DNA of 36,794 nt. It comes from an uncultured Thermoflexus sp. Its GTDB lineage: Bacteria > Chloroflexota > Anaerolineae > J036 > Brachytrichaceae. Made by a program: the position numbers and the translations under genes. Of this stretch, positions 932 through 36,794 are shown in pieces. Numbering within the stretch: position 1 is the stretch's first letter; each line of letters begins with the position of its first letter. Location of the stretch: positions 1 to 36,794 of the forward strand of contig CAZLOF010000001.1 in the NCBI GenBank assembly GCA_964560745.1. The letters are read 5' to 3'. The notes below the pieces were generated by a model that did no database searches, had not been told where the DNA came from, and worked only from the letters and a program-made list of their open reading frames with translations.

Positions 932-1537
932 CTAATTTGCGCTTTCACACTGCGCAAAAACGGCAATCCTGCAAACCGCTTCCTCAACCGGCACCAGCGA
1001 TGCGTCGACAACCAGATCGGGAACTTCCGGAGCCTCATAGGGATCGGAAACCCCTGTAAAACAAGCCAATTTTCCGGCTTTCGCCATTTCGTAGAGGCCT
1101 TTCGGATCGCGTTGTTCGCAGACCTGAATTGGTGTGCTGACATACACCTCACGAAATCGCTCTGCGCCGATAATGCGCTTCGCCATGGCACGATCTTCTC
1201 GGTACGGCGAGATGAATGCGGTGATGACAATCAGGCCGGCATCATTCATCAGATGGGCCACTTCCGCTATCCGCCGAATGTTCTCCGTGCGATCCTCGTG
1301 AGAAAAACCAAGGTTGCTGTTAAGCCCATGGCGGACGTTGTCTCCGTCAAGGACATAACACGCCCGGCCTGCATTGATCAGATGGCGCTCAAGCGCAAAC
1401 GCAAGCGTGGACTTGCCGGACGCACTCAGTCCGGTTAACCAGATTGTCTGCGCGGACTGGCCGAACAATCGCTGCCTGTCTTCTGTCGATACGTGACCAC
1501 CGTGCCAAACCACTTGCTTCATTGATTGCTCCATCAT
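932..1537 (-). CDS. cysC: adenylyl-sulfate (APS) kinase
   Basis: P-loop LTGLSASGKSTLA, then LDGDNVRHGLNSNLGFSHEDRTENIRRIAEVAHLM, FISPYREDR and RDPKGLYEMAKAG...FTGVSDPYEAP, which are classic CysC motifs. The track ORF (932..1756) is over-extended. I place the start at ATGATG 1537/1534, giving MMEQSMKQVVWHGGHV. This forms an ATGA overlap with the stop of the upstream gene at 1534-1536. Confidence 0.9.
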   Translation of the reverse strand: MMEQSMKQVVWHGGHVSTEDRQRLFGQSAQTIWLTGLSASGKSTLAFALERHLINAGRACYVLDGDNVRHGLNSNLGFSHEDRTENIRRIAEVAHLMNDAGLIVITAFISPYREDRAMAKRIIGAERFREVYVSTPIQVCEQRDPKGLYEMAKAGKLACFTGVSDPYEAPEVPDLVVDASLVPVEEAVCRIAVFAQCESAN

Positions 1538-2559
1538 TCCGGCTTCCCTGCCTTCAATACCAACGTACCCATCACCAACGGCGCATACGCCAGGATAACC
1601 AAACCGGGCATCCACTGCGGCCACTGCATGCAGGCCCAGGCCATAGGTGCCAACCACAGCAGATTGACGGTAGCGGCCAACAAGGTGACAGAGTGATGAC
1701 CAGCATTTCTTTCGCCCTGCCAGCATCGCGCCAAACGCTGATACGCATGTTGGCAATGCGCCTCATACCAGCGTTCGCCACGCGCCATCCGCGTCAGCAG
1801 CGTAACGGTCGCATCGGCAACAAAAACAGCACCCAGAACCAACCATGCCGCATAGCTCAACCAGCCAGCTTGTATGGTGAGCAAGGCCAGCGCAAAGATC
1901 ATGAAGCCCAGCCAGGTACTGCCCGTATCGCCCATGAAGATTTTTGCGGGAGGCCAATTCATCAGCAAGAAACCGACGGTGGCCGCAACAACGCAAAGCA
2001 TCAGCCCCCAGAGAGGGCTGGCCACCGCATCGGGATTTATCCATGCCGTCAAGGCGGCTGCGGCCATCAACATGAACACTGCCTGCGCTCCGGCAATGCC
2101 GTCGATGCCATCCATGAAATTGAACACATTAATCCACCAAACGCCGACCAGTAAAAGCAGTCCGGATAAAACAAGACCACCCAATACGATATTGCCGACG
2201 ACGATTTCTGGAACAGTTCCCAGTACGATCAACAATCCCGCACAGACGGACACCTGTACGCTCAAGCGCACACGGGCCGACAAACGCCGGATGTCATCCA
2301 ATAGCCCGACCAGTGCCAGCGGTACAGCAAGAACTAATGGTGCCAGGAGCGCCTGGGATTGAGCCCATGCTAACCAAAAGCCAGCCACCGTAGAGACAAC
2401 AACCATTCCAAGACCACCGCCGCTTGGCGTCGGCTGCACATGGCTGCAACGCAGCGTTGGCGCTTGCATCAGGCTCAGCCGCTCGGCACGATGCAACAGC
2501 CAGATCGTCAAACACCAGGAGGCCAGAAAACTCAGCGCCAACAACAAAATCTTGATCAT
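1534..2559 (-). CDS. glycosyltransferase family 4 polyprenyl-phosphate sugar-1-phosphate transferase (WecA/WbpL/MraY superfamily), likely the initiating enzyme
   Basis: It is polytopic and hydrophobic throughout. Motifs are LLDDIRRL, NVFNFMDGIDGIAG and IFMGDTGSTWLGF. The ATG at 2559 overlaps the upstream stop (ATGA at 2556-2559). Confidence 0.85.
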   Translation of the reverse strand: MIKILLLALSFLASWCLTIWLLHRAERLSLMQAPTLRCSHVQPTPSGGGLGMVVVSTVAGFWLAWAQSQALLAPLVLAVPLALVGLLDDIRRLSARVRLSVQVSVCAGLLIVLGTVPEIVVGNIVLGGLVLSGLLLLVGVWWINVFNFMDGIDGIAGAQAVFMLMAAAALTAWINPDAVASPLWGLMLCVVAATVGFLLMNWPPAKIFMGDTGSTWLGFMIFALALLTIQAGWLSYAAWLVLGAVFVADATVTLLTRMARGERWYEAHCQHAYQRLARCWQGERNAGHHSVTLLAATVNLLWLAPMAWACMQWPQWMPGLVILAYAPLVMGTLVLKAGKPE

Positions 2560-8710: not shown

Positions 8711-9676
8711 ATGACCCATTACGACATCTTCAACGGCGACGCCGACGGCCTTTGTGCCCTCGTGCAGCTACGTCTAGCGCACCCTCTTGATTCGAATCTC
8801 GTCACCGGCGTCAAACGCGACATCCAATTGCTCGACCGCGTCAATGTCGCCGAAGACGATCACTTCACCGTGCTCGACATCTCGCTCGACAGCAACCGCG
8901 CCGACCTGCAACGGATCCTCGCAGCCGGTGCGCAAGTCGAATGGTTCGATCACCATTACGCCGACCCGATCCCCGCGCATCCTGGCCTGAACGCGCACAT
9001 CGTCACCGCCCCCGACACCTGCACCAGCCTCATTGTCGACCGGCACTTGAGTGGCGCACAACGGCTTTGGGCCATCGCAGGGGCCTTCGGCGACAACCTC
9101 CACCAGAGCGCCGAACAGCTCGCCACGGCCGCAGGGCTTCCCATCGACAAGACCAAACTGCTCCAGGAACTGGGCGAAGCCTTGAACTACAACGCCTACG
9201 GCGAAACCGTCGCCGACTTGCGTTACCCGCCCGAGTTGCTGTTTCACCTGATGATACAGGCAGCCAACCCGTTCGCCTTCATACGGGACTTCCCTCCCTT
9301 CGAGATTCTGCGCAGTGGATTCAATGAAGACATCGGCAACGCGCGCAGCGTCCAACCCCACTCACATACACCTCACGGCACCATTTACATCCTGCCCGAC
9401 ACCAATTGGGCGCGTCGGGTATCCGGTGTCTTCGCCAACGAGTTGGCCGTCGCCCACCCCACCAAGGCGCATGCCATCCTCACCCATAATTCTGGTGGCG
9501 ACTACACCGTCAGCGTCCGCGCACCGAAGGCTAAACCGAGCGGCGCCGATCAACTGTGCCGCCAGTTCCCTACCGGAGGTGGCCGCAAAACTGCAGCTGG
9601 GATCAATCGCTTACCCAAAGAACAACTGGCAAGTTTCGTAGCAGCGTTCGAGCCGCAGTATGGTGGCAAAGAATGA
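8711..9676 (+). CDS. DHH/DHHA1-family phosphoesterase (NrnA-like fold)
   Basis: MTHYDIFNGDADG (DxD), VLDISLD, WFDHHY (the DHH motif) and, near the C-terminus, PTGGGRKTAAG, which is a GGGH-like DHHA1 motif with R in place of H. The track ORF starts at 8555 inside the previous gene. ATG 8711 lies 13 nt after that gene's stop. Confidence 0.75.
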   Translation: MTHYDIFNGDADGLCALVQLRLAHPLDSNLVTGVKRDIQLLDRVNVAEDDHFTVLDISLDSNRADLQRILAAGAQVEWFDHHYADPIPAHPGLNAHIVTAPDTCTSLIVDRHLSGAQRLWAIAGAFGDNLHQSAEQLATAAGLPIDKTKLLQELGEALNYNAYGETVADLRYPPELLFHLMIQAANPFAFIRDFPPFEILRSGFNEDIGNARSVQPHSHTPHGTIYILPDTNWARRVSGVFANELAVAHPTKAHAILTHNSGGDYTVSVRAPKAKPSGADQLCRQFPTGGGRKTAAGINRLPKEQLASFVAAFEPQYGGKE

Positions 9677-12089
9677 AAACGCCGCCCACCAGCGCCAACT
9701 TTTCTCGCCCATGACAGCAATTAACCTGCGCAGGCTCGAATTCGAACTGCGGCGCATTCGGCGGATGCCGTTGCCTACCCTCGCCGGCAAGGTAATAAGC
9801 AAGCTTCTCGGTCTCGGTCTCGGTCTTACCCTGCTGCCGGTTACTGCGCTGCTGCATCTGGCGGGTTACCGCCACGTCACCATCTTCACCGACCGCATTG
9901 GCCACCTGGCCCTGGAACCAGACTGTCTGCTCAAGGAGCATACGCTGGGCCATGTTCCGTACAGAAAATGGATCATGCTCGCACCGCCCGGCCGCGTCGC
10001 CAACGAACACCTCTTGACCTATTGGCAGCCGCACTTCCACATCGTTCGCAGCCGTACCACCTGCTTCCTCATCGCCAGCATGAGCCGTTGGGGGCTGATG
10101 CGTTACAACATCGACCACTATGTTCGCGCCATTGGCCAGGCCCAGGCCGCGTATCGCATCCACGCCGAATGGAACGACCGTCCGCCCCTCCTTGCGTTGT
10201 CGGTCGAAGACCAAGCATGGGGGGCCGAGATGCTTCTAAAACTGGGCTTACCGCAAAGCGCCTGGTTCGTCTGCGTCCACGCCCGCGAATCCGGTTTTTC
10301 GCCCGTGGACGAAGAACTGCACAGCCATCGTAATAGTCGTACCGAAAACACCATTCTCGCAATGCAGGAAATCGTCAAACGCGGAGGATGGGTAATACGG
10401 ATTGGCGACCCTTCGATGCGACCGCTACCGCCGATGGCGCAGGTTATCGACTATGCCCACCATCCGCTGAAATCGCCTCGACTGGACATCATTCTCTGTG
10501 CGAGGGCACGCTTCATTCTCGGCAACACCTCCGGCGTCGCTCTCGTCGGCACGGCATTCGGCGTTCCCTGCGCACTCGTCAACATGGTCCCCATCTCGGC
10601 CATGGGCGTCAGCCCTCAGGATATTTCAATCCCAAAGCTTCACTGGTCCCTGAATGAGGATCGCTATCTTAGTTTCAGCGAAATTTTCGCATCGCATCTT
10701 TCGCGCGCGCAATACGGCCGGGACTTCACTGGCGCTGGCATCCGGGTTGAAGAAAACAGCCCAGAGGACATCAAGCAACTTGCGACTGAAATGCTCGATC
10801 ACCTAGAGGGAAGCGTTGCTGATGCCCACGAATGCAAGACACTGCAGCAGGCATTCCTTGCCTTATTAATGGCCGATCACTACTCGTTCGGGACCACATC
10901 CAGGGTTGGTTCCAGATTTCTCAAACGTCACCGAATGCTCCAAAGCTCCGAGAGGATTTCTATGCTCAACGCCAAACTGGCCGTCCACCACATCGGTGCC
11001 CGAGGCCCCACCCAAGCCTTTCCGACGAACCCAGCTTTCGAGGCTTCTGTAGTCAATGTGCTCTACGAGGCCGATCCCGCCTGCATCGCCGAACTCGAGC
11101 AACTAAACAGCAGCCGTGCAGCAAAGGTGATCATCCTCAACGAATGCGTGTCCGGCACCGGCGGCCTGCGAACATTCTGCGACGCTCACCATGGCTACGG
11201 CAGCTCGTTGCTTGAAGCCAACGCCGAACTCAGGGATCTTTACATCCCAGCGCACTGGATTGACTACGACTACACCGTCTATGAAGCGATCTCAGCCAAG
11301 AGCCGACGCGAGGTAGCCACCAAAACGCTCGACCAGATCACCAATGAAGGCAGTGATATACCGCTACCAGATTTTCTTTCCCTAGACACGCAGGGCACGG
11401 AGCTCGAAATTCTCCAGGGCTCCCCAACCGCGCTGGACGCGGCAGTCTGTATCGTCACAGAAGTCGAGTTTGTACCCCTTTACCAAGACCAACCACTTTT
11501 CGGCGATATCTGTACATTTCTAACCAGCCGTGGCTTCGTCTTCGCCAAACTATTCCAACTACTTAATGGCTCCCTGTATCGGTCCCCATTGGGTCTGCGC
11601 GGCAGCGGCGTTCCCGTGACCACCGACGCCCTCTTCCTGAAGAACCCCCGATCCATCGCTGCATCTAACCGCACAACTCAGGGCAAAGCTATAAGCCTCG
11701 CCAAATTGGCTTTCTTCTCTTTGTCTCAAGGCTATGTTGAGCACGCGCTCTGGGCATTGCATGAAGCTGAGCACTACGCCTGGCGCGAACTCGACTTCGC
11801 CGAACCCTGGTTCAAATTCATGCTGCGATTCTTCGAGTTGACAGAGCGATTTCCAAGGCTAATGCCGGAAACCTTTTTTGAACGCCACGCTGTCACTGCA
11901 ATTGGCAAGACCGAATTCTCAAGGCGTACGGCCGAGCATGTCGGAGAACTCAACAGTTGCTTGGCAGGGATACTGGCACTGTTGCGAGACCACCACTTCA
12001 ACGAAGCGGCCGAGGTATTGCTGCGGCAAGCGGAAATCGACCAGAAGCGGCTCGACTTGCCACCGCTGTTTATAACAGCGAACGCCTAA
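9660..12089 (+). CDS. fusion protein: putative glycosyltransferase domain (TIGR04372-like, from memory) + FkbM-family methyltransferase domain + C-terminal helical region
   Basis: Residues about 70-385 are paralogous to the C-terminal part of the 16194..17948 product (GGWVIRIGDPSMRPL...VIDYAHHPLKSPRLDI...FILGNTSG versus GGWVIRMGDPSMKPL...VIDYAHSTLKTPRADI...FFLGTNSG). Residues about 435-650 carry the FkbM-type pattern LSLDTQGTELEILQGS...VTEVEF. No stop codon separates the domains. The start may be ATG 9660, which overlaps the previous gene by 17 nt, or ATG 9711. Confidence 0.75.
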   Translation: MVAKNENAAHQRQLFSPMTAINLRRLEFELRRIRRMPLPTLAGKVISKLLGLGLGLTLLPVTALLHLAGYRHVTIFTDRIGHLALEPDCLLKEHTLGHVPYRKWIMLAPPGRVANEHLLTYWQPHFHIVRSRTTCFLIASMSRWGLMRYNIDHYVRAIGQAQAAYRIHAEWNDRPPLLALSVEDQAWGAEMLLKLGLPQSAWFVCVHARESGFSPVDEELHSHRNSRTENTILAMQEIVKRGGWVIRIGDPSMRPLPPMAQVIDYAHHPLKSPRLDIILCARARFILGNTSGVALVGTAFGVPCALVNMVPISAMGVSPQDISIPKLHWSLNEDRYLSFSEIFASHLSRAQYGRDFTGAGIRVEENSPEDIKQLATEMLDHLEGSVADAHECKTLQQAFLALLMADHYSFGTTSRVGSRFLKRHRMLQSSERISMLNAKLAVHHIGARGPTQAFPTNPAFEASVVNVLYEADPACIAELEQLNSSRAAKVIILNECVSGTGGLRTFCDAHHGYGSSLLEANAELRDLYIPAHWIDYDYTVYEAISAKSRREVATKTLDQITNEGSDIPLPDFLSLDTQGTELEILQGSPTALDAAVCIVTEVEFVPLYQDQPLFGDICTFLTSRGFVFAKLFQLLNGSLYRSPLGLRGSGVPVTTDALFLKNPRSIAASNRTTQGKAISLAKLAFFSLSQGYVEHALWALHEAEHYAWRELDFAEPWFKFMLRFFELTERFPRLMPETFFERHAVTAIGKTEFSRRTAEHVGELNSCLAGILALLRDHHFNEAAEVLLRQAEIDQKRLDLPPLFITANA

Positions 12090-13954
12090 GGATACTGGGC
12101 TGCCGCGCCCTCAAGCGCCTGCGCCCCGACCTCATCACAGGAGTCGCGACGTAACTGGGCAAGTCCAGCGAAGGCTGCCTGTTCTCTGCCATTGAAGTAC
12201 TGACGACAGAAGTGAATTAGGGGGGTGGGCGCATCGTCGGCCGCCATCTCCGTAACTTTTGCCCGCTCGCGGCGAGGTAACCAGCGGGAAAGCAATGATT
12301 TTTCTGAATTTATGTCAGCCAGAGACACATTAAAGGCGGCCTTCATGCGCTCGGCCCCTTCTACGTAATAGTCACAACCCAGCCGCACCGAATGAGCAGC
12401 GAACACTGCAGCCCAAGGCCAGTCGTTGCGCAATTCGGATAACAACGCTAATTGGAACCAGCAGTCGCCATGCGCCGGGTAGGCTGCGGCAACCTTGGTC
12501 CATAAAGTCATTGCGGCCTCAAACTCACCGGATTTTTTGTACTCCAATGCCCGATCACAGGCTTCCTGATCCGTTAACCAGGCGCCTTCGTGAGTAATTT
12601 TCCCTTGCTCTACTGCAGCCCCGAAAGCCGAGTATTCATGATGCATCGGCAGTGGCGGCAAGCGTTTGAGCAGCAGCAGCTCCTCTTTCGTGCAACGACG
12701 CTCCAGATCCGCCTTGCCAACCATCGCCAAATAAGCAACCAGCAATGCTCTGGAACGCTCGCTGCGATTGATTCGGAAATCATTCCACAAGCGGAAAAAA
12801 GTACCATCGATACCGGACTCAATATTGAAATGGCCGATGTAGTCGGTCAAGCTTGCAAGTCGACGACAGGAAACTCTCCGCCCATCGAATTCATTACCCG
12901 AATGGTCGAGCATGCGTTCCGGTCGCCCCGGGCTGGAGCTTGTCCGATCATCGATTGCGATGCCAACCCAATCTTCCAGCATGACAGCAGCAGCATTCAG
13001 AGTCGCCTGTTTTCGAAGATCGGCAAGCGTCTGCTCATCGGTAACCCGCTTTCCCAGAAAACCGATCCCCTTGGGAAAGTTGCGTATCAGCGGGCAACGG
13101 TGAACCGCGGGGTCGATCTCGAAAGCATTGATTTCCCAACGCTCATCCAAGCCAAACAACCAATCGCCGACTTCCGTTCTTGCAACAGATGCGGGAGTGA
13201 CTGGTGCCATAAAGGAATTGATCGTAAACAGCCAATCCACCTGGCAATCCTGCTGGACAAGCTTCATCCAGGCATTGACAAACGCATTCGGCATTTCGCC
13301 AAATGACCAAACGTTGATTGCCAGGTCAAAATGCTTTCCTGCCAAGACTTGCGGGGCATCGACCACCGGAACCAGGCAAAAATCAGCCTCATGTGCCGTT
13401 TCGGCAGCGCCAACTTCTTGCCATGCAATCGTCGCATCGGGAAAAGCCGCTCGTAAGTAGATCTCGGCGCAGTGCAGCGACTCGGGAATATCGGCAAGCC
13501 AAAAGCGCGTATCCGGATGGAAGCATTTCAATGTGCGCGCAAACCCGCCGTACCCCGATCCGATCTCAAGGACGTTAGCTTTCGTCTCGCCGGGAGGGGG
13601 CCAAATATCGCGAAGCTGCATCGCATAAATTACATAGCGCAGCAGATCTGGGCTTAGCTTGCGGTTGCCCCTGCGGATTATGGTGGCAGCCGGCACGATA
13701 TCCAGTTCAACCAGATCATCAGGCAAGCTGCCAATCTCGACATCAAAGTGCTGGGCAAGGTGCTGCTGTAACCATGTTGCAACAGCGTCGTTGAATTCCG
13801 GCGTCGGATAGGATGTGAATTGGGAGAAATAGCCCAGCTCAAGAATTTGCCGCAACCGGACAACATCAGTCTGATCGGAAGCCAGCAAGTCAGCCATGTT
13901 TGCTGATGCCTGCTGCCAAACGCTACCGTAAGAATTACTTTGCATGGACGCCAA
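12086..13954 (-). CDS. SAM-dependent (putative sugar O-) methyltransferase with C-terminal TPR-like region
   Basis: VLEIGSGYGGFARTL (motif I) and ADIPESL. The C-terminus ACDRALEYKKSGEFEAAMTLWTKVAAAYPAHGDCWFQLALL is TPR-like. 13954 is a TTG; ATG 13945 (MQSNSYGS) is an alternative start. Its stop (12086-12088) overlaps the stop of the convergent plus-strand gene (12087-12089). Confidence 0.7.
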   Translation of the reverse strand: MASMQSNSYGSVWQQASANMADLLASDQTDVVRLRQILELGYFSQFTSYPTPEFNDAVATWLQQHLAQHFDVEIGSLPDDLVELDIVPAATIIRRGNRKLSPDLLRYVIYAMQLRDIWPPPGETKANVLEIGSGYGGFARTLKCFHPDTRFWLADIPESLHCAEIYLRAAFPDATIAWQEVGAAETAHEADFCLVPVVDAPQVLAGKHFDLAINVWSFGEMPNAFVNAWMKLVQQDCQVDWLFTINSFMAPVTPASVARTEVGDWLFGLDERWEINAFEIDPAVHRCPLIRNFPKGIGFLGKRVTDEQTLADLRKQATLNAAAVMLEDWVGIAIDDRTSSSPGRPERMLDHSGNEFDGRRVSCRRLASLTDYIGHFNIESGIDGTFFRLWNDFRINRSERSRALLVAYLAMVGKADLERRCTKEELLLLKRLPPLPMHHEYSAFGAAVEQGKITHEGAWLTDQEACDRALEYKKSGEFEAAMTLWTKVAAAYPAHGDCWFQLALLSELRNDWPWAAVFAAHSVRLGCDYYVEGAERMKAAFNVSLADINSEKSLLSRWLPRRERAKVTEMAADDAPTPLIHFCRQYFNGREQAAFAGLAQLRRDSCDEVGAQALEGAAAQYP

Positions 13955-13959
13955 CTGAA

Positions 13960-16131
13960 CTAACGCTCCCAGCCGTAAAACTCTAACAGATCATCCGAGA
14001 CTAGGCGCTGAACAGAGGTAGTCTGGCCTGATGAAAGGGCTTGCCGCCATTCATCCGTTTGCCCCCCACGGAAATGCAATTTCCCGACAGTTGGAGACTC
14101 TGGATGGGTAAATAATTTTCGGTCAATCGAATAAAAATCCAAGATTGAATTGAAATAGGCTGCGGGGTCATTCACTAGGTCTTCTTGTTTCAAGAAAAGA
14201 ACAGTCGCTTTGATACTACCGCTCTTCACACCGTTCATCCATGTAGTTAGGTACTGAATCTGGCGAGGAAGGTACCAATCAATCGCCCAGTCGATCCTAT
14301 CTTCCAGACTAAGGTGAGATAGCACTCTTGCATAGCTATTGTGGGCTTGGCGACCGACGTGCTCTGGGTCTGCAAGGTAGTGTGCCCACGACATTACGGT
14401 TTGTCTGGGATCGCGAACATGAGCTAATACTTTCGAAAGGGTATTAATTGCGTATGTAGTAACCCCTTCTGGGAAGAAATGACCTTGCACGACAGCGCCA
14501 CCTTTGTTAGCCAGATTGGCGAGCCGCTCCAAATCAATTATTTCCGATGCGTCCTCAGTCCCAGTCCAAGTACTCAATCGAACAGGCTGAAGAGAAAGAC
14601 CAGATGACAAACTCATCCAAATAAATGCTGAGGCCGATTTTGGCAGCGTCGATAGGACGATTAAGAGTGGGGAGTTTTGATCCTCCATTTTCGAGGACAG
14701 TACGCGGGAGAGACTGTTAGCCGCTTTTGTGTCTGCCGTTTCAAGCTGGTTTCTGCCCATTGAGATCAGTGAACTAGCCCGTGGAAGCGAATCGAGATCC
14801 TGAGCAGCCAATTCGGCTGCCGTAAATAAATGCTTGGCAATCGTCAATTCTTTCACCGGCAATGTCAAACACAAAGAATTTGACTCAGTTAAGCCCTCAA
14901 GTGCTCTAGCTTTTTGCTGATGTATCCGCCAATCGTAAGGGAAGTCAACTAGGGCACTGTCCGCAAGCAGGTTGGCCATATCAGACTTTCCGCCCCCGAC
15001 AGCCTCGGCAATTTTGATCACTGCATCGTCCGCCGAAGAAAACTGAGATAAGGAATCAGGTTCAGATCGGGCAGCCACGAAGGATTCGGTTTGGATTGCC
15101 TTCTGGGTATCTAAAACGACATTCCCAGGCGCGGGGTTTGATATTCTTTCCGATGAATGCGGAGCCAGTTCATGTGATGGTGCCCTTTCCGGCTGAGGGG
15201 TATGCAATTTGGAAACCAGCCAATCCACAAAGCCGCGGGGAGGGGGCATGACAACCTCCTTCGGGTCTTGCGTGTCCAGAGGACCAAAATCATCGAGGCC
15301 CTTCAGCCGGAAAGTGCGCCCATTCATTTTCAGGAAGTTATTAATACCAGCCACGACTTCCTGTTCTGTATATGCCCCAGTTGCGACAAAGGGACGATAC
15401 GATCCAATCAAGAGCTGCGCCAAGGACAAGCCACGCTTATCGTCATTAAAGACAGCATCAAATGGAACCACAAAGGGCCAACTGGTACTTTTTTCCAGTA
15501 CTGTGGTGATCAAGGACGACACACCAACGATATTCCGTAGCCCTTCCATGTAGTCAAGATAATCATGAAAAAAATTGCCGCGATCCATCGCCGTCTCATC
15601 GCAAGTTCTGGCCCTGACACTTAGCGCTTTGTAACCGTTCATCCAGATCAGGGCGTGCCAGAATTTTGGCGTCGGGTTCATTAGCCCATGGTTGCCGAGA
15701 CCAAAAAGAGGCACGTCGTTATAGAGAACTCCCCCTTCGGCGCACATCTCGTGCATCAGTGCAAACGTAGCGGCCGGACTGGCGAGGTGCTCGGTAGTGC
15801 CCACGTTGACCACCAGCCCGTATCGACCTCTCGGCCGCGGAATGTCAAAGCGAGCCAAGTCCACGCGGAGAGTGCCGGGGCGTTCGTCAACATCAATGCA
15901 TGTATAGGAAAAACCGGCGCGAAGATAAACTTCGCGTGCCTCAATAACCGAGGGAAACTGGCTAATGGCGAGCAATCGTCCGCCCGGGTTATGTTTGCTG
16001 ATGAACTGATTCAATTGGTCCAGTTCAGCGGTGGAACCTATCGATACGTCCTGCGCGCCGACATCGAGAACTTCTTTCGATGGAAGTTCCAGATTGCCGA
16101 TTTCTTCAAACATTGCTGGGGCGTAGCCCAT
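13960..16131 (-). CDS. fusion protein: methyltransferase-fold N-domain + ~190-aa low-complexity/helical linker + C-terminal sulfotransferase domain
   Basis: N-domain: VLDVGAQDV...LVVNVGTTEHL...EGGVLY. C-terminal domain (about 13963-14670): LPKSASAF (5'-phosphosulfate-loop-like, codons at 14635-14643), VRDPRQTVMSWAHY (3'-phosphate-binding-like) and HFRGGQTDEWRQAL, matching PAPS-dependent sulfotransferase motifs. The start is set at ATG 16131 (MGYAPAMFEE), with GGGAG 7-8 nt upstream. In-frame ATG 16137 and the track start at 16185 are alternatives. Confidence 0.75.
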   Translation of the reverse strand: MGYAPAMFEEIGNLELPSKEVLDVGAQDVSIGSTAELDQLNQFISKHNPGGRLLAISQFPSVIEAREVYLRAGFSYTCIDVDERPGTLRVDLARFDIPRPRGRYGLVVNVGTTEHLASPAATFALMHEMCAEGGVLYNDVPLFGLGNHGLMNPTPKFWHALIWMNGYKALSVRARTCDETAMDRGNFFHDYLDYMEGLRNIVGVSSLITTVLEKSTSWPFVVPFDAVFNDDKRGLSLAQLLIGSYRPFVATGAYTEQEVVAGINNFLKMNGRTFRLKGLDDFGPLDTQDPKEVVMPPPRGFVDWLVSKLHTPQPERAPSHELAPHSSERISNPAPGNVVLDTQKAIQTESFVAARSEPDSLSQFSSADDAVIKIAEAVGGGKSDMANLLADSALVDFPYDWRIHQQKARALEGLTESNSLCLTLPVKELTIAKHLFTAAELAAQDLDSLPRASSLISMGRNQLETADTKAANSLSRVLSSKMEDQNSPLLIVLSTLPKSASAFIWMSLSSGLSLQPVRLSTWTGTEDASEIIDLERLANLANKGGAVVQGHFFPEGVTTYAINTLSKVLAHVRDPRQTVMSWAHYLADPEHVGRQAHNSYARVLSHLSLEDRIDWAIDWYLPRQIQYLTTWMNGVKSGSIKATVLFLKQEDLVNDPAAYFNSILDFYSIDRKLFTHPESPTVGKLHFRGGQTDEWRQALSSGQTTSVQRLVSDDLLEFYGWER

Positions 16132-16193
16132 GTTCATTCTCCCTTTTATTTCCCGCTCCCCGCCGCATGTTGTCGGGAGCTGCACGATTTATT

Positions 16194-17948
16194 TCAGTTA
16201 TTTTCTTCCGTTAGCACCGGCTTCAGCATGGAACCATACTGCCGAATAAATGCACCTGCGAGCGTGCTGCCCACGTAACTTCCATGGCACTCGGCCACTT
16301 GACGATAATAAGCACGGGCATCCGCGAGCCTTTCATCCGGAGATTCCGGAGACATGCCAAGTGCTTCTGCGGTGATCTCTCGTATATCGTCCGGGGTGTT
16401 GTCGTGCAGCCTGATCCCTGCCGGCAGATCCGCCCAATTCTGAATGTATGCCACTCCGGATGCGAATATTTCGTCGATAGTCAGATAGCACTCGCGGCTT
16501 TCATCCCAAAACAACTTTGGCATCATCAAGTCCTGACTGGGCCATAACGGCAAACCAATTGGCAGCCAGTTGGAAAACACACAGCGAACGCCATAGATCG
16601 CCGGAATGGTGGCGAAACCAGAATTCGTCCCCAAGAAAAATCGGCAGCCGAGAGGGATCAAGATGTCCGCGCGAGGTGTCTTGAGGGTGCTATGAGCATA
16701 GTCGATGACTCCCGGTATTGGTGCCAGCGGCTTCATCGAGGGATCGCCCATACGGATAACCCAGCCCCCACTTTTCACAATCAGGTCGATGGCCGGCAAA
16801 TAGTCATCGATATTGGCATCCCGCATGCTGGGGTAAAGCGTATTCCAACCTTTGTGGAAACCCGGCTCTCGCACATGCAGACAAATGTACCAAGCCCCTT
16901 CGGGCAACCCGAGCAAGTTCAACGCCCGGTCAATGAATTTCCGTTCACCATCGGTAACCGAAAGCACTGGCGGCCGCTGTTGCCGCTCCCATTCTTTCTG
17001 GATCTTGTCCGCCGCGTGGGTATAACCCCACACCTCGCCATCTGGAAACTCGAATTCCCAGAAATCGTCGATCATCGCAAAACGTTCCGCTGACGTTAGC
17101 TGGCTCCAGCGACGCTTGCCATGGCGCTTGGCCCAACGGTCATAGTCTGGTTGCAGCCTTCCGCTCTCGATGAACTCAATGCCTGCTTCACCCAAGCGCT
17201 CGCACAGGTAGTTGCCGGGCACACCACTGATGTCGGTTTGAGCGACGACACGAACCTCCGCATCTCTGTAGAGCTTGTTGTACTTGGCGTAAAAATCGAG
17301 CATCGCCACATGGCCGATGGCGGCAAACCAAGAGTTGCCAACAATCCGGTAGATGGGTCCGGACTCCTCGCCGAGGATGAAGCGCCGCAATTCTCCGGCC
17401 TTTCTCCAATATTGATTTGCCAGCTCGATTTTGCCGAGCATGAAGAAGGTGATGCCAGCGTCACGAAGGAGTTGCAGCCTGCGTTCCAGCGGAAACTTGC
17501 CTGAAGAACGCTCGATCAGGTCCTCAAAGGACTCGCAGGCTAAGGCAAGTTTGCCCGCCTGGAAGAGTTGGTGCGCCAAGGCATATTGAGCCTCAGGGTC
17601 AAACTGCTCACCCGATAATGCCTCACGGAAAGTGGCCGGTTGTAGTTGCGAAGCCAATCCTTTGTCGGCCTTACCCACTGCCAGGTAAAGATATGACCGC
17701 AATGTCCGGTTATTTATGCGGGTGCGGTGCCTGCGTTTGGGTTCACGGCGGGATACATGAGCGATGAATCTTAGTGCTCCAAAACCCAGCACTGCGTCAG
17801 CGAGCTGGAACGGCAAATAGCCGATGCCACGAACGATGGGATTACCGGACAATTGTGATTTAGCCAGTACGCCCAGTACCCATACACTGTGATGGCCAAG
17901 AAAGGCCACATAGAGTCTGGCGATAGACGCCTTGATTCGGGAAAACAT
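16194..17948 (-). CDS. putative glycosyltransferase (TIGR04372-like domain) with N-terminal hydrophobic segment and TPR-like region
   Basis: It is a paralogue of the N-terminal domain of the 9660..12089 product (see that entry). The N-terminus is hydrophobic (VWVLGVLA..., GFGALRFIA), followed by TPR-like AQYALAHQLFQAGKLALACESFEDLI. The ATG at 17948 is preceded by GGAGAG. Confidence 0.7.
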   Translation of the reverse strand: MFSRIKASIARLYVAFLGHHSVWVLGVLAKSQLSGNPIVRGIGYLPFQLADAVLGFGALRFIAHVSRREPKRRHRTRINNRTLRSYLYLAVGKADKGLASQLQPATFREALSGEQFDPEAQYALAHQLFQAGKLALACESFEDLIERSSGKFPLERRLQLLRDAGITFFMLGKIELANQYWRKAGELRRFILGEESGPIYRIVGNSWFAAIGHVAMLDFYAKYNKLYRDAEVRVVAQTDISGVPGNYLCERLGEAGIEFIESGRLQPDYDRWAKRHGKRRWSQLTSAERFAMIDDFWEFEFPDGEVWGYTHAADKIQKEWERQQRPPVLSVTDGERKFIDRALNLLGLPEGAWYICLHVREPGFHKGWNTLYPSMRDANIDDYLPAIDLIVKSGGWVIRMGDPSMKPLAPIPGVIDYAHSTLKTPRADILIPLGCRFFLGTNSGFATIPAIYGVRCVFSNWLPIGLPLWPSQDLMMPKLFWDESRECYLTIDEIFASGVAYIQNWADLPAGIRLHDNTPDDIREITAEALGMSPESPDERLADARAYYRQVAECHGSYVGSTLAGAFIRQYGSMLKPVLTEENN

Positions 17949-24654: not shown

Positions 24655-25374
24655 TCATGTTTTCGACTCAACTGACACGATCTTTCCATGCTCTAAATGG
24701 ATAATCTTGTTGCACTGATCTTGAATCATTGCGTGGTTGTGGGAGGCAATCACAACTATCTGCGCATTACTCAACATACGATCAAGACGTGCCTTAGCCT
24801 TCGTCGCAAATTCGGAGTCGCCAACACTAAGCCATTCATCCATGAGGACGATATCCGAGTCGAAACATGTGGAAATCGCAAAGGCTAAGCGCATTGTCAT
24901 GCCACTTGAATATGTTCTTATGGGTAGATGGAGAAAGTCGCCAAGGCCGGAAAATTCTTCAATCTCTTCGATTGCCGCAGCCATTTGTTTTTTTGGGATC
25001 CCCATTACGTGGCCGCGCATAAATGCATTTTCTAAGCCGCTGGCCTCCATATCCATGCCGAGCGTAATACTAAGCATCGATGTAACCCGGCCTTTGACTG
25101 TCATCTCGCCTGCGACAGGTTCATAGATACCGGCAAGAGCTCTCAAGAGAGTCGATTTCCCCGAACCGTTGTGACCAATCAACCCGACTCTATCGCCCTC
25201 ATGGAATTCAAAATTCAGTCTATCGAGTGCTCGAACAACGACGTGGTTGGAAGCATCTTTTGCTAATGCACCGCCGGTTGCCGCATGAAGAATTTTTTTC
25301 TTAATTGATCGATTGGTTGTGCTTCCGTAAATCGGAAATTCAATAACCAAATCTTTTGCATGGATCAAGGGCAT
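24655..25374 (-). CDS. wzt: polysaccharide ABC exporter ATP-binding protein, short form without a C-terminal carbohydrate-binding domain
   Basis: GLIGHNGSGKSTLLRALAGI (Walker A), YSSGMTMRLAFA (signature) and IVLMDEWLSVGD (Walker B). The start is set at ATG 25374 (MPLIHAKDL), 4 nt after the permease stop, giving about 239 aa. Confidence 0.9.
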   Translation of the reverse strand: MPLIHAKDLVIEFPIYGSTTNRSIKKKILHAATGGALAKDASNHVVVRALDRLNFEFHEGDRVGLIGHNGSGKSTLLRALAGIYEPVAGEMTVKGRVTSMLSITLGMDMEASGLENAFMRGHVMGIPKKQMAAAIEEIEEFSGLGDFLHLPIRTYSSGMTMRLAFAISTCFDSDIVLMDEWLSVGDSEFATKAKARLDRMLSNAQIVVIASHNHAMIQDQCNKIIHLEHGKIVSVESKT

Positions 25375-25378
25375 AGCT

Positions 25379-26239
25379 TTATATCCAGTATGCCACTCTA
25401 GAACGGAACCTCGAAAACAGGGCCAAGGCGAAAATAGAACCAAAAATCAGCATTCCAAACGCAACGGACCAAGATAGCAGGGCAACCGCCTGTCCCACCA
25501 AAGGAGCTCGAATCAATTCAACCAAATGATATAGCGGATTCACGTCGGCAATAATCCGGTTTGGGCCAAGCATATCGGCCTTCCAAAGTATCGGACTGAT
25601 GAAGAAGGCTACCTGAATTAAATTCGCCACGATCTGCGGAATATCTCTGAATCTCGCACATAGCAGCGCCACGACCAAACCAACCCAGAAAAGGTTTCCG
25701 ATCACTACAATAAGACCCACACCAGAAGTGAATACCTTTGAAATTTCGTCAGGAGGGAAAGCAATCACCAGCACCAGAATAATCGCAGCGTTATGCGCAA
25801 AAACGATTACATTTCTGGCAAGCACACGTAGCAAATGGACAGAGAGAGGGAGATTTATTTCTTTTATATACCCTGACGCACCAATAAAAGCAGTACAGGA
25901 ATCATTTACTACGCCGGAGATAAATAGCCAGATAATCAAGCTAATGCCCAAGTGTTGCAGATAGGGGCCAATTTCCTGATTGAGCAAGGCGCCATAAAGC
26001 GGCCCCATTGCTGCGACCATGAGCCCAGTGCTGATCGTAATCCAGAATGGGCCGATAACTGACCGACGATATCGCTGCTTTATATCTTGCCATGCCAAGT
26101 GAAACCAGAGCTGCGTGCCAAACAATCCCTGCTGGATATCTGTCACGCCTTTCTGCAATTGACTTAAATAATTTTTATCGGCCACAAGTTCTCTTGATTT
26201 AAAAAACAGCTTCTGGACTGTATAAAACTTGGGAGCCAA
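25379..26239 (-). CDS. wzm: ABC-2-type polysaccharide exporter permease
   Basis: AWQDIKQRYRRSVIGPFWITI, the typical Wzm/TagG/KpsM N-terminal motif, followed by about six hydrophobic segments. The start is uncertain. 26239 is a TTG, and the in-frame GTG at 26185 is an alternative. Confidence 0.8.
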   Translation of the reverse strand: MAPKFYTVQKLFFKSRELVADKNYLSQLQKGVTDIQQGLFGTQLWFHLAWQDIKQRYRRSVIGPFWITISTGLMVAAMGPLYGALLNQEIGPYLQHLGISLIIWLFISGVVNDSCTAFIGASGYIKEINLPLSVHLLRVLARNVIVFAHNAAIILVLVIAFPPDEISKVFTSGVGLIVVIGNLFWVGLVVALLCARFRDIPQIVANLIQVAFFISPILWKADMLGPNRIIADVNPLYHLVELIRAPLVGQAVALLSWSVAFGMLIFGSIFALALFSRFRSRVAYWI

Positions 26240-34573: not shown

Positions 34574-35509
34574 TCATACCGCACGGTACATGGCACCGAT
34601 GACAGATGCGGATGAAACGCCCCCCCACCCATCATTCGCCGCACACCGAACCATCAAATCCTCCGTCCCAGAGAACCGATCCAGATCCGACAGCATGATC
34701 GCCTCCAGCATCGCTGGCTTGCGAATTCCCAGCCACTCAGGCGCCGCCTTGCTCGACGTAAGACAATGCAGAAGCGCCTCGTAGTGCCCCTTGGGAAGAA
34801 TGATGCGATGCTTGGCCATGGCCTTCGCGATCCACTCGATGTTGGTGATCTTATGTCCGAGCAGACGACCTCGGTCGCTTAGCTTCCAGCTGCCATCGCT
34901 TTTCAGTAGATACTCGTCCGCCTTGCCCGCATCGTGGAGCAAACCCGCGAGCACGCCGAGCGGCGCGCTGGAGATGTCCTTGCGACCGCACCACTCGCGC
35001 ATCATCGCCGCCACGTCGATGGCGTGGGCGAGATTTCCATTGTCTCCGTTGTGATGCCCGTTCATTGACGAAGGCCCTGTGCAGAAGCGGCGGAACCGTT
35101 CGCCTTCCCAAAAGATCGCGTTGAACAGATGCCGGTGACCGCGCGGCAGAAGCTCAAGAAGGTCAGCCCCCTTTCTCACCAGGCTCCGATCCCGAACCCA
35201 CCCCGTTGGCACCAGATCGAAGAGGTTTTCAATCGGCACGGGATACTCAACCAGGACAAGCCGGCTGATGCGGATCGCGCCTTGCTCGCTCACCGGCGTC
35301 GTCGCGAGCCAGCGAGGCGAGACAAGGAGGTTCGACTTGATGCGTGTGTCCGGGCGGGCAGTCGTCCATTTCACGTTGAGCGAGGCGCGCTCGTGGAAGA
35401 GGGTGGCCGAACAATCGGTGCGTTTGTGATCGATCACTTTCGCCGAATAGCTTGTCAAACGAAAGATCGACGGCAACGACGGCAGATCAAGGTTGGTGAT
35501 TTCATCCAT
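34574..35509 (-). CDS. HD-domain phosphohydrolase/nuclease-like protein (YhaM / TraI_2-type HD core)
   Basis: PSSMNGHHNGDNGNLAHAIDVA and GLLHDAGK (the HD dyad), with later GHKITN and LSDLD. The N-terminal ~100 aa is beta-rich and could be an OB fold. The start is set at ATG 35509 (MDEITNLD), with GGAG 7 nt upstream, overlapping the integrase stop by 8 nt. Confidence 0.65.
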   Translation of the reverse strand: MDEITNLDLPSLPSIFRLTSYSAKVIDHKRTDCSATLFHERASLNVKWTTARPDTRIKSNLLVSPRWLATTPVSEQGAIRISRLVLVEYPVPIENLFDLVPTGWVRDRSLVRKGADLLELLPRGHRHLFNAIFWEGERFRRFCTGPSSMNGHHNGDNGNLAHAIDVAAMMREWCGRKDISSAPLGVLAGLLHDAGKADEYLLKSDGSWKLSDRGRLLGHKITNIEWIAKAMAKHRIILPKGHYEALLHCLTSSKAAPEWLGIRKPAMLEAIMLSDLDRFSGTEDLMVRCAANDGWGGVSSASVIGAMYRAV

Positions 35510-36794
35510 TTTTCTTCTCCATCGATTCATCGTTGGCGGCATTGCCCTCCTGGCCCACAGCGGAGATCGCGCCGCTCTGCAGCAGGAGACGTTCGAAGGC
35601 AGAGCCGTCCTTGCGGGTCAGGTTCGGGACGTAGCGGCTATAGACGCGGAAGAGCATCTCGGTCGTGCTGTGCCCCAGCTGGCGGGCAATCCATTCCGGC
35701 GCTTCGCCACTGGCCAGCCACAAGGTGGCTGCGGTATGCCGACATTGATAGGGCCGACGCACCTTGAGCCCGAGATAGCGAAGCAGGGGATTCCAGACGC
35801 GGCTGATGAAGTTCTTGTTGTCGAGCGGATCCCCGTTGCGGTTGCAGAACACATACTTCATGGCGCCGGTCGACTTGTGCTGTTCCTTCAGCGCGTCATA
35901 GACCACCTGGCTCATCTGGATGTCGCGCTGACTGGAATCGGTCTTGGTGTATTCGTCTTCGCCGAGAACAAAGGTTTCGCGGACGCGGATCTCCCGACGA
36001 TCGAAGTCGACATACTTCCACTGCAAGCCATGAACTTCGCCGGTACGCAGCCCGGTGAAGAAGCGAACGGAGAAGTAGTTGCGGAAATCCTGGCGGACGT
36101 TGGCGATGATCGCCTTCACTTCGTCCAGTGTGAAGGGATCGACATCGCTCTTCTTGACCTTCAGCTGCTTGATGTTCTGGAACGGCGAGCGATAGTCGAA
36201 TCGGTCGGCCGCTTCGTTGAGGATCTGGCGAATCGGATTGAGAATCCGGTTGATGCGGCTGCTCGACAGTTGCGTCGTTTTCTTCCGTGCCGGGACTTTG
36301 GCGAGTTGGGCACGGAAGGCAAGGATGTCCGCCTTGGTGATCTGGCCGACCGCTTTTTCTCCGAACTGGGGAATCAGGATCTTGGTGATGTCATCACGGA
36401 CGCGCGTCTTGTGGGAGCGACGCCATTCGATTTCCTTCTCGGCATACCAGGTTTCGGCGAACTCCTTGAAGAGCGGCGTCTGCGGACGGAACTGGTCGGC
36501 ATTGGCGGCATTGAGGATCGGCACCTCGGCACCAGCGAGTGCAACACCCAGGGTCGAAATGGCTTCGGCCATCGGTGCCTGGTCGAACTTGGCGGCGTTG
36601 CGGCTGGTGGGGAAGTAGCGGCGGTAGTCGAAGACCCCCACTGCGATATCGCTCTCGATTTTCTCAAGAAACTTTTCAAGACGCTTGCGATTGGCGGCCG
36701 TGTCGGGAAGCGCAGTGTATTCCCGGCAGCGCTCTCCTCGATACCGGAAATCGATGAACAGATTTCCGGTCTTGTCGAGTGTGCGAATGCTAGC
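35502..36794 (-). CDS. int: tyrosine site-specific recombinase (phage-type integrase) with Arm-type N-terminal DNA-binding domain; N-terminus beyond the right window edge
   Basis: Catalytic region: FFTGLRTGEVHGLQW (Arg), CRHTAATLWL (the His/Arg box typical of these integrases) and LGHSTTEMLFRVYSRY (His, Tyr). The track starts the ORF at GTG 36641, but the frame stays open to 36794: ASIRTLDKTGNLFIDFRYRGERCREYTALPDTAANRKRLEKFLEKIESDIAVGVFDY. This is the typical Arm-binding N-terminus (DUF3596-like), so the true start is off-window. Confidence 0.9.
   Translation of the reverse strand, partial: ASIRTLDKTGNLFIDFRYRGERCREYTALPDTAANRKRLEKFLEKIESDIAVGVFDYRRYFPTSRNAAKFDQAPMAEAISTLGVALAGAEVPILNAANADQFRPQTPLFKEFAETWYAEKEIEWRRSHKTRVRDDITKILIPQFGEKAVGQITKADILAFRAQLAKVPARKKTTQLSSSRINRILNPIRQILNEAADRFDYRSPFQNIKQLKVKKSDVDPFTLDEVKAIIANVRQDFRNYFSVRFFTGLRTGEVHGLQWKYVDFDRREIRVRETFVLGEDEYTKTDSSQRDIQMSQVVYDALKEQHKSTGAMKYVFCNRNGDPLDNKNFISRVWNPLLRYLGLKVRRPYQCRHTAATLWLASGEAPEWIARQLGHSTTEMLFRVYSRYVPNLTRKDGSAFERLLLQSGAISAVGQEGNAANDESMEKKNG

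Follow-up and report, generated by a model that had tools for sequence, protein, structure and literature searches.

The locus described here raises the question of what a protein that joins a methyltransferase fold to a sulfotransferase does in a surface-polysaccharide gene cluster, and in particular whether it caps the polymer and sets its chain length, as was proposed in a first-pass annotation, or decorates it in some other way. The gene lies on the minus strand of a 36,794-nt stretch of DNA from an uncultured Thermoflexus sp. (contig CAZLOF010000001.1); the whole stretch is called the window, and the positions of all features are given in its coordinates. The analysis points with moderate confidence to a bifunctional, strain-variable tailoring enzyme that acts on the lipid-linked glycan before export by Wzm/Wzt.

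The fusion protein comprises four parts, whose residues are numbered from the ATG at 16131:

13960..16131, minus strand: the methyltransferase-fold/sulfotransferase fusion gene, 723 aa plus stop
15283..16131, minus strand: class-I methyltransferase-fold domain (N-domain), aa 1-283, of an uncharacterised family, recognised by Pfam, AlphaFold2 (AF2) and Foldseek
15043..15282, minus strand: disordered spacer rich in proline and serine, aa 284-363, about 80 aa, delimited by composition, predicted local distance difference test (pLDDT) and identity
14668..15042, minus strand: helical module resembling tetratricopeptide repeats (TPR), aa 364-488, about 125 aa, delimited by AF2, Pfam TPR models and profile
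13963..14667, minus strand: predicted sulfotransferase (ST) domain dependent on 3'-phosphoadenosine-5'-phosphosulfate (PAPS), aa 489-723, recognised by Pfam, profile, Foldseek and motifs

The open reading frame (ORF) extends over 13960..16185 on the minus strand and would give 741 aa if read from a GTG. The ATG at 16131 (MGYAPAMF...) has a GGGAGA ribosome-binding site (Shine-Dalgarno sequence) 7 nt upstream, and the homologues of the fusion protein all start with MGY(A/S) and align from MGY. The true start was therefore placed at this ATG, so that the boundaries 13960-16131 of the first-pass annotation are exact. The gene is represented in metagenomes from activated sludge and from wastewater. 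In run X1 a single contig spans 13700-16400 with 0 differences, and run X11 contains a variant of the gene of about 98 % identity with substitutions only and no indels. An assembly or frameshift artefact was rejected since the gene is intact and free of indels in these independent metagenomes. The protein is predicted to be soluble, no transmembrane or hydrophobic segment being present (maximum KD19 = 1.39). NCBIfam has no model for the fusion protein, and all named members of the two families represented in it, that of the N-domain and that of the TPR-ST part, are labelled 'hypothetical protein'.

The C-terminal domain is almost certainly a sulfotransferase. The Pfam model Sulfotransfer_1 (cut-off 22) gave 23.3 bits with the C-terminal part alone and 20.8 bits, just below the cut-off, with the full protein; it gave 23.3 bits with P0001, the closest orthologue, and matched 38 of the 41 members of the family (best E 1.6e-14). 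When the family profile was compared with solved structures, 5x2b (E 1.8e-8) and StaL (E 1.9e-7) were found, together with SULT2A1, SULT1B1 and Teg12, while a phmmer search of the PDB with the single sequence was borderline (StaL, E 0.02). The AF2 model obtained from a 7-sequence alignment was unusable (mean pLDDT 51) and was replaced by one from a 75-row alignment (mean pLDDT 80.8). The fold of the ST domain was recognised by Foldseek as that of SULT7A1 (E 7e-7, TM(target) 0.56), with SULT1A1, SULT1C1, StaL, Teg12 and the CurM ST among the further matches. The three motifs pointed out in the first-pass annotation, LPKSASAF, RDPRQTVMSW and FRGGQTDEWRQ, are all present in the domain, and a candidate catalytic residue was added to them:

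14623..14646, minus strand: LPKSASAF, aa 496-503, loop binding the 5'-phosphosulfate (K498), aligned with PKAGGHW of StaL
14479..14481, minus strand: His551 in QGHFF, candidate catalytic base, invariant in 41 sequences and aligned with the His of ATHF in StaL
14386..14415, minus strand: RDPRQTVMSW, aa 573-582, motif binding the 3'-phosphate (R573, S581), aligned with RNPRDAMLS of StaL
14041..14073, minus strand: FRGGQTDEWRQ, aa 687-697, family consensus HFRKGxxDEWR with R688 and W695 invariant

The His of ATHF in StaL is presumably the catalytic base of that enzyme, and FRGGQTDEWRQ is taken to resemble the RKGxxGDWK motif of cytosolic sulfotransferases. Residues H551, R573, R576, W631, R688 and W695 are invariant in the family alignment (n = 41), and P497, K498, S499, D574, P575 and S581 are conserved in at least 90 % of the sequences. 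In StaL, the positions aligned with K498, H551, R573 and S581 serve in PAPS binding and catalysis. The searches with hidden Markov models that had been advised for both enzyme families each returned a match, Sulfotransfer_1 for the C-terminal part and Methyltransf_23 for the N-domain (below), and for the former Foldseek found the fold as well.

The surrounding genes form an ATP-binding cassette (ABC) transporter-dependent (Wzm/Wzt) surface-polysaccharide cluster, of which the following are needed here:

932..1537, minus strand: cysC, adenosine-5'-phosphosulfate (APS) kinase, which makes the PAPS donor (Pfam APS_kinase, E 3e-68; NCBIfam adenylyl-sulfate kinase)
1534-2559, minus strand: wecA-like initiating transferase gene, its stop overlapped by the start of cysC (ATGA)
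9660..12089, plus strand: TIGR04372 glycosyltransferase fused to an FkbM methyltransferase (Pfam/NCBIfam domain matches)
12086..13954, minus strand: downstream neighbour, NanM-like sugar O-methyltransferase with TPR, 5 nt after the stop of the fusion gene
16194..17948, minus strand: upstream neighbour, TPR plus TIGR04372 glycosyltransferase (Pfam/NCBIfam domain matches)
24655-25443, minus strand: Wzt (Pfam ABC_tran), at most 262 aa, ending right after the nucleotide-binding domain
25379-26239, minus strand: Wzm (Pfam ABC2_membrane), which together with Wzt makes up the ABC exporter (24655..26239)

The fusion gene belongs to a co-directional run of genes from 27385 to 12086. Through the ATGA overlap cysC appears to be translationally coupled to the wecA-like gene, and hence to glycan initiation, which would wire PAPS synthesis into the glycan operon. 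The assembly genes of the window comprise the WecA-like transferase, two family 2 glycosyltransferases (GT2), two TIGR04372 glycosyltransferases (one with TPRs, one fused to FkbM) and Wzm/Wzt, and the others include the NanM-like O-methyltransferase with TPR, heptose-pathway-like genes, several other methyltransferases and sugar-nucleotide genes. The best NCBIfam models of Wzt and Wzm are those of galactan export (O2a-type); the Wzt model, scored below its cut-off, is 244 aa long and free of a carbohydrate-binding module (CBM), and neither a Wzt_C match nor a CBM was found in the Wzt of the window. The intact PAPS-binding and catalytic residues, the sulfotransferase fold, the presence of cysC in the operon and the ABC-dependent glycan cluster together make a sulfated glycan, the minimal inference of the first-pass annotation, a well supported predicted product of the locus.

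The acceptor of the ST domain is most probably a glycan. A non-glycan acceptor is conceivable, for instance a lipid, a nucleotide sugar used as precursor, or a protein or peptide to which the TPRs bind: peptides are the classical ligands of TPRs, many ST family members consist of TPR and ST with no visible glycan context, and the solved enzymes nearest to the domain act on small molecules or glycopeptides. Such an acceptor is regarded as very improbable, however, given that the gene is embedded within a glycan operon, with 5 nt between it and the gene that follows, and that the neighbouring glycan enzymes bear TPRs too. A glycan context is provided, too, by the ST family itself, in which a GT2-ST fusion (P0104) occurs and which is found repeatedly beside wzm/wzt. 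The TPR-TIGR04372 protein encoded upstream (16194..17948) is likely a polymerase component, and could be the partner on which the fusion protein docks.

Further features of the window concern the sugars and the history of the cluster. Between 18507 and 34506 there are unusual precursor genes, which encode two C-methyltransferases and at least three other methyltransferases, a WbuC cupin, a radical SAM/SPASM enzyme, a 2-oxoglutarate oxygenase of the TIGR04324 'sporadic carbohydrate cluster' type, a split transketolase, an APH-like kinase (548 aa), a GmhA-like SIS protein and an HldE-like enzyme. This gene set suggests a heavily methylated, branched and possibly heptose-derived sugar. The G+C content is 0.45-0.50 over about 24-34 kb and 0.53-0.61 elsewhere in the window, a tyrosine integrase gene is situated at the right end (35502-36641, minus strand) and no tRNA gene was found in the window. 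Part of the cluster may have been acquired horizontally.

The N-domain, described in the first-pass annotation as a Rossmann methyltransferase-like domain, certainly has a methyltransferase fold. It was matched by Pfam Methyltransf_23 with 27.5 bits (cut-off 27), as were 25 of the 32 family members, and it was modelled by AF2 with a pLDDT above 90. The Foldseek matches are class-I methyltransferases dependent on S-adenosylmethionine (SAM), namely RebM, MccD, TleD, MitM and BH2331 (E about 4e-5 to 5e-4). The family alignment (32 sequences, down to 23 % identity) contains 12 invariant residues, G25, D80, D91, N109, G111, T112, E114, H115, P141, H148, N165 and Y167, with Q27 conserved in at least 90 % of the sequences. 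Two motifs stand out:

16045..16071, minus strand: VLDVGAQDV, non-canonical motif I, family consensus D-x-G-[SA]-Q-[DE]
15787..15807, minus strand: invariant N-x-G-T-T-E-H motif after strand beta-4 (alignment and AF2 model)

The Glu and His of the latter are a candidate catalytic pair, and the invariant D80 and D91 are placed at the ends of modelled strands. Methyl transfer by the N-domain is considered somewhat more likely than not. A competing idea is that the protein only sulfates, the N-domain being an acceptor-binding or scaffolding module or using SAM for other chemistry, as MccD does. This idea draws on a motif I that is D-x-G-[SA]-Q-[DE] and not GxGxG, on a Pfam match that covers only beta-4 to beta-5, on the modest TM-scores of the fold matches (0.35-0.55, Foldseek) and on the lack of a sequence match in the PDB. 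When the family was aligned by hhalign with a canonical methyltransferase of the same window, likewise only beta-4 to beta-5 could be aligned and motif I could not be mapped. Against it stands the invariant pattern, kept down to 23 % identity and including the Glu-His pair and acidic residues (D80/D91) where binding of the SAM ribose and adenine is expected, which argues for an active enzyme; in addition the family consists mostly of stand-alone proteins in clusters rich in sugar-modifying enzymes. A protein that only sulfates is regarded as rather improbable.

The relatives of the fusion protein show how the two domains are combined. An exhaustive profile search yielded 2292 relatives of the two domains, and the TPR-ST and methyltransferase-fold families together have more than 1000 members at E<=1e-10, whereas close relatives of the whole fusion protein number only six among 5.8 billion proteins. 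Four full-length orthologues (P0001-4) were found in syntenic clusters. In P0005 an ST of an unrelated lineage occupies the same place after the N-domain. In the syntenic locus L001 the neighbouring proteins are 80-94 % identical to those of the window but the N-domain only 62-69 %, and the C-terminal ST is of an unrelated lineage (EKSGTSHF ... RDPVARAISE; BLAST E 0.86 against the ST of the window). The ST is absent altogether from the syntenic clusters L015, L020, L027, L029 and that of P0008, in which the N-domain is present.

The two domains also occur as separate proteins. Most relatives of the N-domain stand alone, as proteins of 250-320 aa. In a betaproteobacterial metagenome-assembled genome (MAG), a Usitatibacter MAG and three other metagenomic loci (L002, L003, L012, L013 and L016 in all) a gene for a 281-aa N-domain is followed by an overlapping TPR-ST gene, and the spacer is gone. 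In L012 (1100-4741) the stand-alone N-domain gene is located between two different TPR-ST genes, which gives two STs in one cluster. At greater distance, the N-domain of L007 is 37 % identical and a Sulfotransfer_1 gene follows it 78 nt downstream, and N-domains of 43 and 25 % identity are fused to ST in P0010 and P0043, respectively. A second N-domain paralogue (32 % identical) was noted in the betaproteobacterial MAG at L002 19667-20305 (minus strand), about 9 kb from the first.

Of 80 metagenomic loci that contain an N-domain homologue, an ST was present in the flanks examined (within 10 kb) in the four closest only. The partnership of N-domain and ST thus appears recurrent but not obligatory. 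The N-domain is kept where the ST is missing, duplicated or swapped, which suggests that it is the stable component and that sulfation is accessory and variable. The possibility that the N-domain methylates the sulfate, by analogy with methyl-phosphate, was also considered and rejected, since most N-domain homologues work with no ST within 10 kb and since sulfate methyl esters are chemically reactive.

Some further variation was seen in the syntenic clusters. The NanM-like O-methyltransferase with TPR (12086-13954, minus strand) is only 60 % identical to its counterpart in L001 (12186-14039), the rest of that cluster being 80-94 % identical, and the fusion gene and this adjacent gene seem to form a diversification hotspot. 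Small insertions are present (L001 16460-17123, L001 8730-9878 and the P0001 contig), in L001 with a PIN/MazE toxin-antitoxin pair. An Acyl_transf_3 gene, which is not found in the window, adjoins the fusion-gene orthologue in syntenic clusters.

The segment between the catalytic domains bears on the question of chain length. It had been described as a single linker of about 190 aa, of low complexity and possibly helical, but it is made of two different parts. The spacer contains 15 % proline and 11 % serine and has a pLDDT below 50 (AF2, disorder at aa 285-361). It is 41 % identical to that of P0001, in comparison to 82-94 % for the flanking domains, and the number of its residues that can be aligned among the orthologues falls from 80 to 54, 40 and about 8. 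A short Trp-containing helix (aa about 301-309, about 15205-15231, minus strand; DWLVSKLH, in orthologues NLWRNL) is conserved within this disordered region; the TPR modules of the neighbours could dock on this peptide, or it could be a membrane-touching helix. The TPR-like module has a pLDDT of 80-93 and is 82 % identical to that of P0001. In the AF2 model it consists of three short helices (pLDDT about 90) followed by a hairpin whose second helix is about 33 aa long. Pfam TPR models are matched by 13 of the 41 members of the family of the C-terminal part, and the profile matches consensus TPR proteins, which indicates that the helical module is part of a TPR-plus-ST unit and not a neutral linker.

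The linker was also examined for a coiled coil. A strict scan for an a/d core was dropped as too insensitive (P0010 was missed by it) in favour of a weighted heptad score. With a maximum heptad score of 0.41 the linker stayed below the average of its own shuffled versions, 0.46, and there are no a/d-core windows. In the AF2 model the linker shows disorder and short TPR-like helices, the longest of about 33 aa, and no coiled coil, and the heptad score gave no sign of a coiled coil in any other large protein of the cluster either. The prediction of coiled coil and disorder that had been proposed as a check therefore found disorder in the spacer and no coiled coil.

These results bear directly on the proposal that the fusion protein is a capping or terminating enzyme, in which sulfate, with or without methyl, on the non-reducing terminal sugar would stop polymerisation and set the chain length. 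All characterised terminators have an extended coiled coil that serves as a ruler and bears the terminating module at the far end (PMC11231755), and all terminated systems characterised so far have a CBM on Wzt (PMC11231755). In WbdD and in ORF6 of Klebsiella pneumoniae O7 two tailoring activities are fused in the terminator (PMC11231755), as two appear to be here, and N-domain and ST recur fused or adjacent. A TPR-like bundle is also seen in the model of the K. pneumoniae O4 terminator (PMC11231755). However, the fusion protein has no coiled coil, its linker is interposed between the catalytic domains and is disordered, poorly conserved, variable in length and absent from the split-gene relatives, and the Wzt of the window has no CBM. 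The ST is missing from syntenic clusters, as would be expected of an accessory decoration more than of a terminator that is obligatory, and the N-domain homologues, being mostly without ST, do not depend on a sulfated acceptor in the way the methyltransferase of WbdD depends on phosphate. The ruler and terminator role modelled on WbdD that was suggested in the first-pass annotation is consequently not upheld, and termination by this protein is judged unlikely, although its sequence is compatible with a simple terminal cap that has no ruler. When the literature was searched for O-antigen termination by sulfate, the one finding was a sulfotransferase ORF, left unexplained, in an A. salmonicida cluster; a search on TIGR04372 and on TPR sulfotransferases in lipopolysaccharide found nothing relevant.

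Four more distant members of the ST family differ from the fusion protein in having coiled-coil-like segments. P0104 joins a GT2 to an ST through a helix of about 180 aa rich in Ala, Glu and Arg and is encoded directly upstream of wzm. P0062 has an N-terminal membrane anchor, a coiled-coil-like segment of about 300 aa, TPR and ST, and its gene is three genes from wzt/wzm, with a Wzt of 264 aa. In P0043 (aa 376-427) and P0010 (aa 367-432; heptad score 0.69, reached by 2 % of shuffles) the segment lies between N-domain and ST, and the gene of P0043 adjoins that of a 254-aa Wzt. All four are encoded beside wzm/wzt, in four unrelated loci, and Wzt is short where visible. The architectures of these proteins mimic those of WbbB and ORF6(O7). 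The TPR-ST family could thus be conceived as a new class of sulfate-adding chain terminators for ABC-dependent glycans that need no CBM on Wzt, with the protein of the window as a ruler-less sulfate (with or without methyl) cap, but this is judged unlikely. Should the coiled-coil relatives turn out to terminate chains, termination by sulfate would be new chemistry and the rule that a cap needs a CBM on Wzt would have to be revised. As further observations, short Wzt proteins (254-264 aa) accompany the coiled-coil-like ST relatives in L009 and L010, and the linkers of P0010 (aa 365-475, L005) and P0043 (aa 380-425, L010) share a motif Y[KR]HAFETT(T/A)xDRDRL in 2-3 copies each.

The preferred interpretation, a tailoring enzyme, may be described as follows. 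The fusion enzyme would be cytoplasmic and soluble and would serve an ABC-transporter-dependent surface polysaccharide. Its ST domain would take sulfate from PAPS, made by the CysC of the cluster, and place it on a hydroxyl group of a sugar in the undecaprenyl-diphosphate-linked glycan prior to export, and the N-domain would modify this glycan in a second and independent way, most likely by SAM-dependent O-methylation. The TPR-like module would dock the ST onto the assembly complex or the acceptor (the neighbouring enzymes carry TPRs as well), and the disordered spacer would be only a flexible tether. Sulfation, whether in the chain or at its end, would then be an accessory, strain-variable decoration and not part of a chain-length ruler of the WbdD type.

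Several points weigh against this interpretation. The N-domain departs from the E/DxGxGxG pattern expected of motif I, reading V-L-D-V-G-A-Q-D-V with the first Gly alone kept, and its profile has no significant sequence match to any solved methyltransferase in the PDB; given the absence of the GxGxG loop and of such a match, methyl transfer is a putative activity. A fusion of two tailoring activities as tight as this one, as in WbdD and ORF6(O7), would be expected of a terminal cap, and the coiled-coil-like relatives P0010, P0043, P0104 and P0062 beside wzm/wzt also speak for termination. The coiled-coil test, on which the calls in these four relatives also rest, was a home-made weighted heptad score with shuffles, used together with AF2, and not a trained predictor, and the 75-row AF2 alignment had ST homologues with their N-terminal halves in the wrong place, although the domains were still modelled with confidence. 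Finally, none of the RNA runs searched holds the fusion gene, so that no transcript data were found.

Sulfated glycoconjugates have been measured chemically in extracellular polymeric substances from activated and granular sludge, and the bacterial sulfotransferases responsible are largely unidentified (PMC10483923). The fusion gene is a concrete candidate for the sulfated polymers of wastewater sludge, as it encodes a predicted ST with its own PAPS supply in a cluster for an exported glycan. The analysis also defines two unannotated families, a methyltransferase-fold family with the signature DxGSQD/NxGTTEH and a TPR-sulfotransferase family, and the repeated fusion, fission and swapping of their members would mark a hotspot of surface-glycan diversification.

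Among known systems, WbdD (E. coli O9a / K. pneumoniae O3) and O7 ORF6 resemble the fusion protein in combining an N-terminal class-I methyltransferase fold with another group-transfer domain, by which an anionic group is added, and in being encoded within an ABC-transporter-dependent glycan cluster. The second domain of WbdD is, however, an ATP-dependent kinase and that of the fusion protein, by all indications, a PAPS sulfotransferase. Both catalytic domains of WbdD are at one end of the ruler, whereas in the fusion protein the linker separates the two, with neither a coiled coil nor a CBM on Wzt. The methyltransferase of WbdD methylates the phosphate added by the kinase, while the N-domain family mostly works without an ST. 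The fusion protein ends with the ST domain and, unlike WbdD, has no hydrophobic or amphipathic, membrane-binding or polymerase-recruiting C-terminus.

The ST domain shares with StaL, Teg12/14, SULT7A1, SULT1A1 and the CurM ST the fold, the 5'-phosphosulfate-binding motif PKx(G/A)(S/T), the 3'-phosphate-binding motif RxPxxxxxS, the His and the motif RxGxxxxW(K/R). The identity to the solved enzymes is only 13-18 %, and the ST domain differs from them by the TPR module in front of it and by the fused methyltransferase-fold domain. Its acceptor is presumably a lipid-linked polysaccharide, in comparison to the small molecules or glycopeptides of the solved enzymes. The N-domain is similar to RebM and other O-methyltransferases of sugars and natural products (Foldseek E about 5e-5), with which it shares a His-containing motif after beta-4, but it has a non-canonical motif I and an extra beta-hairpin after beta-1, and its invariant elements NxGTTEH, NHG, TPKFW and NxY are absent from known methyltransferase families. 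In their sulfation of bacterial glycoconjugates the rhizobial PAPS-dependent carbohydrate sulfotransferases NodH, NoeE and LpsS are comparable. Unlike the fusion protein, NodH, NoeE, LpsS and NoeI are separate, unfused enzymes without TPR, and the NoeI/NoeE pair places methyl and sulfate on the same sugar, as 2-O-methyl-3-O-sulfo-fucose on the Nod factors of NGR234.

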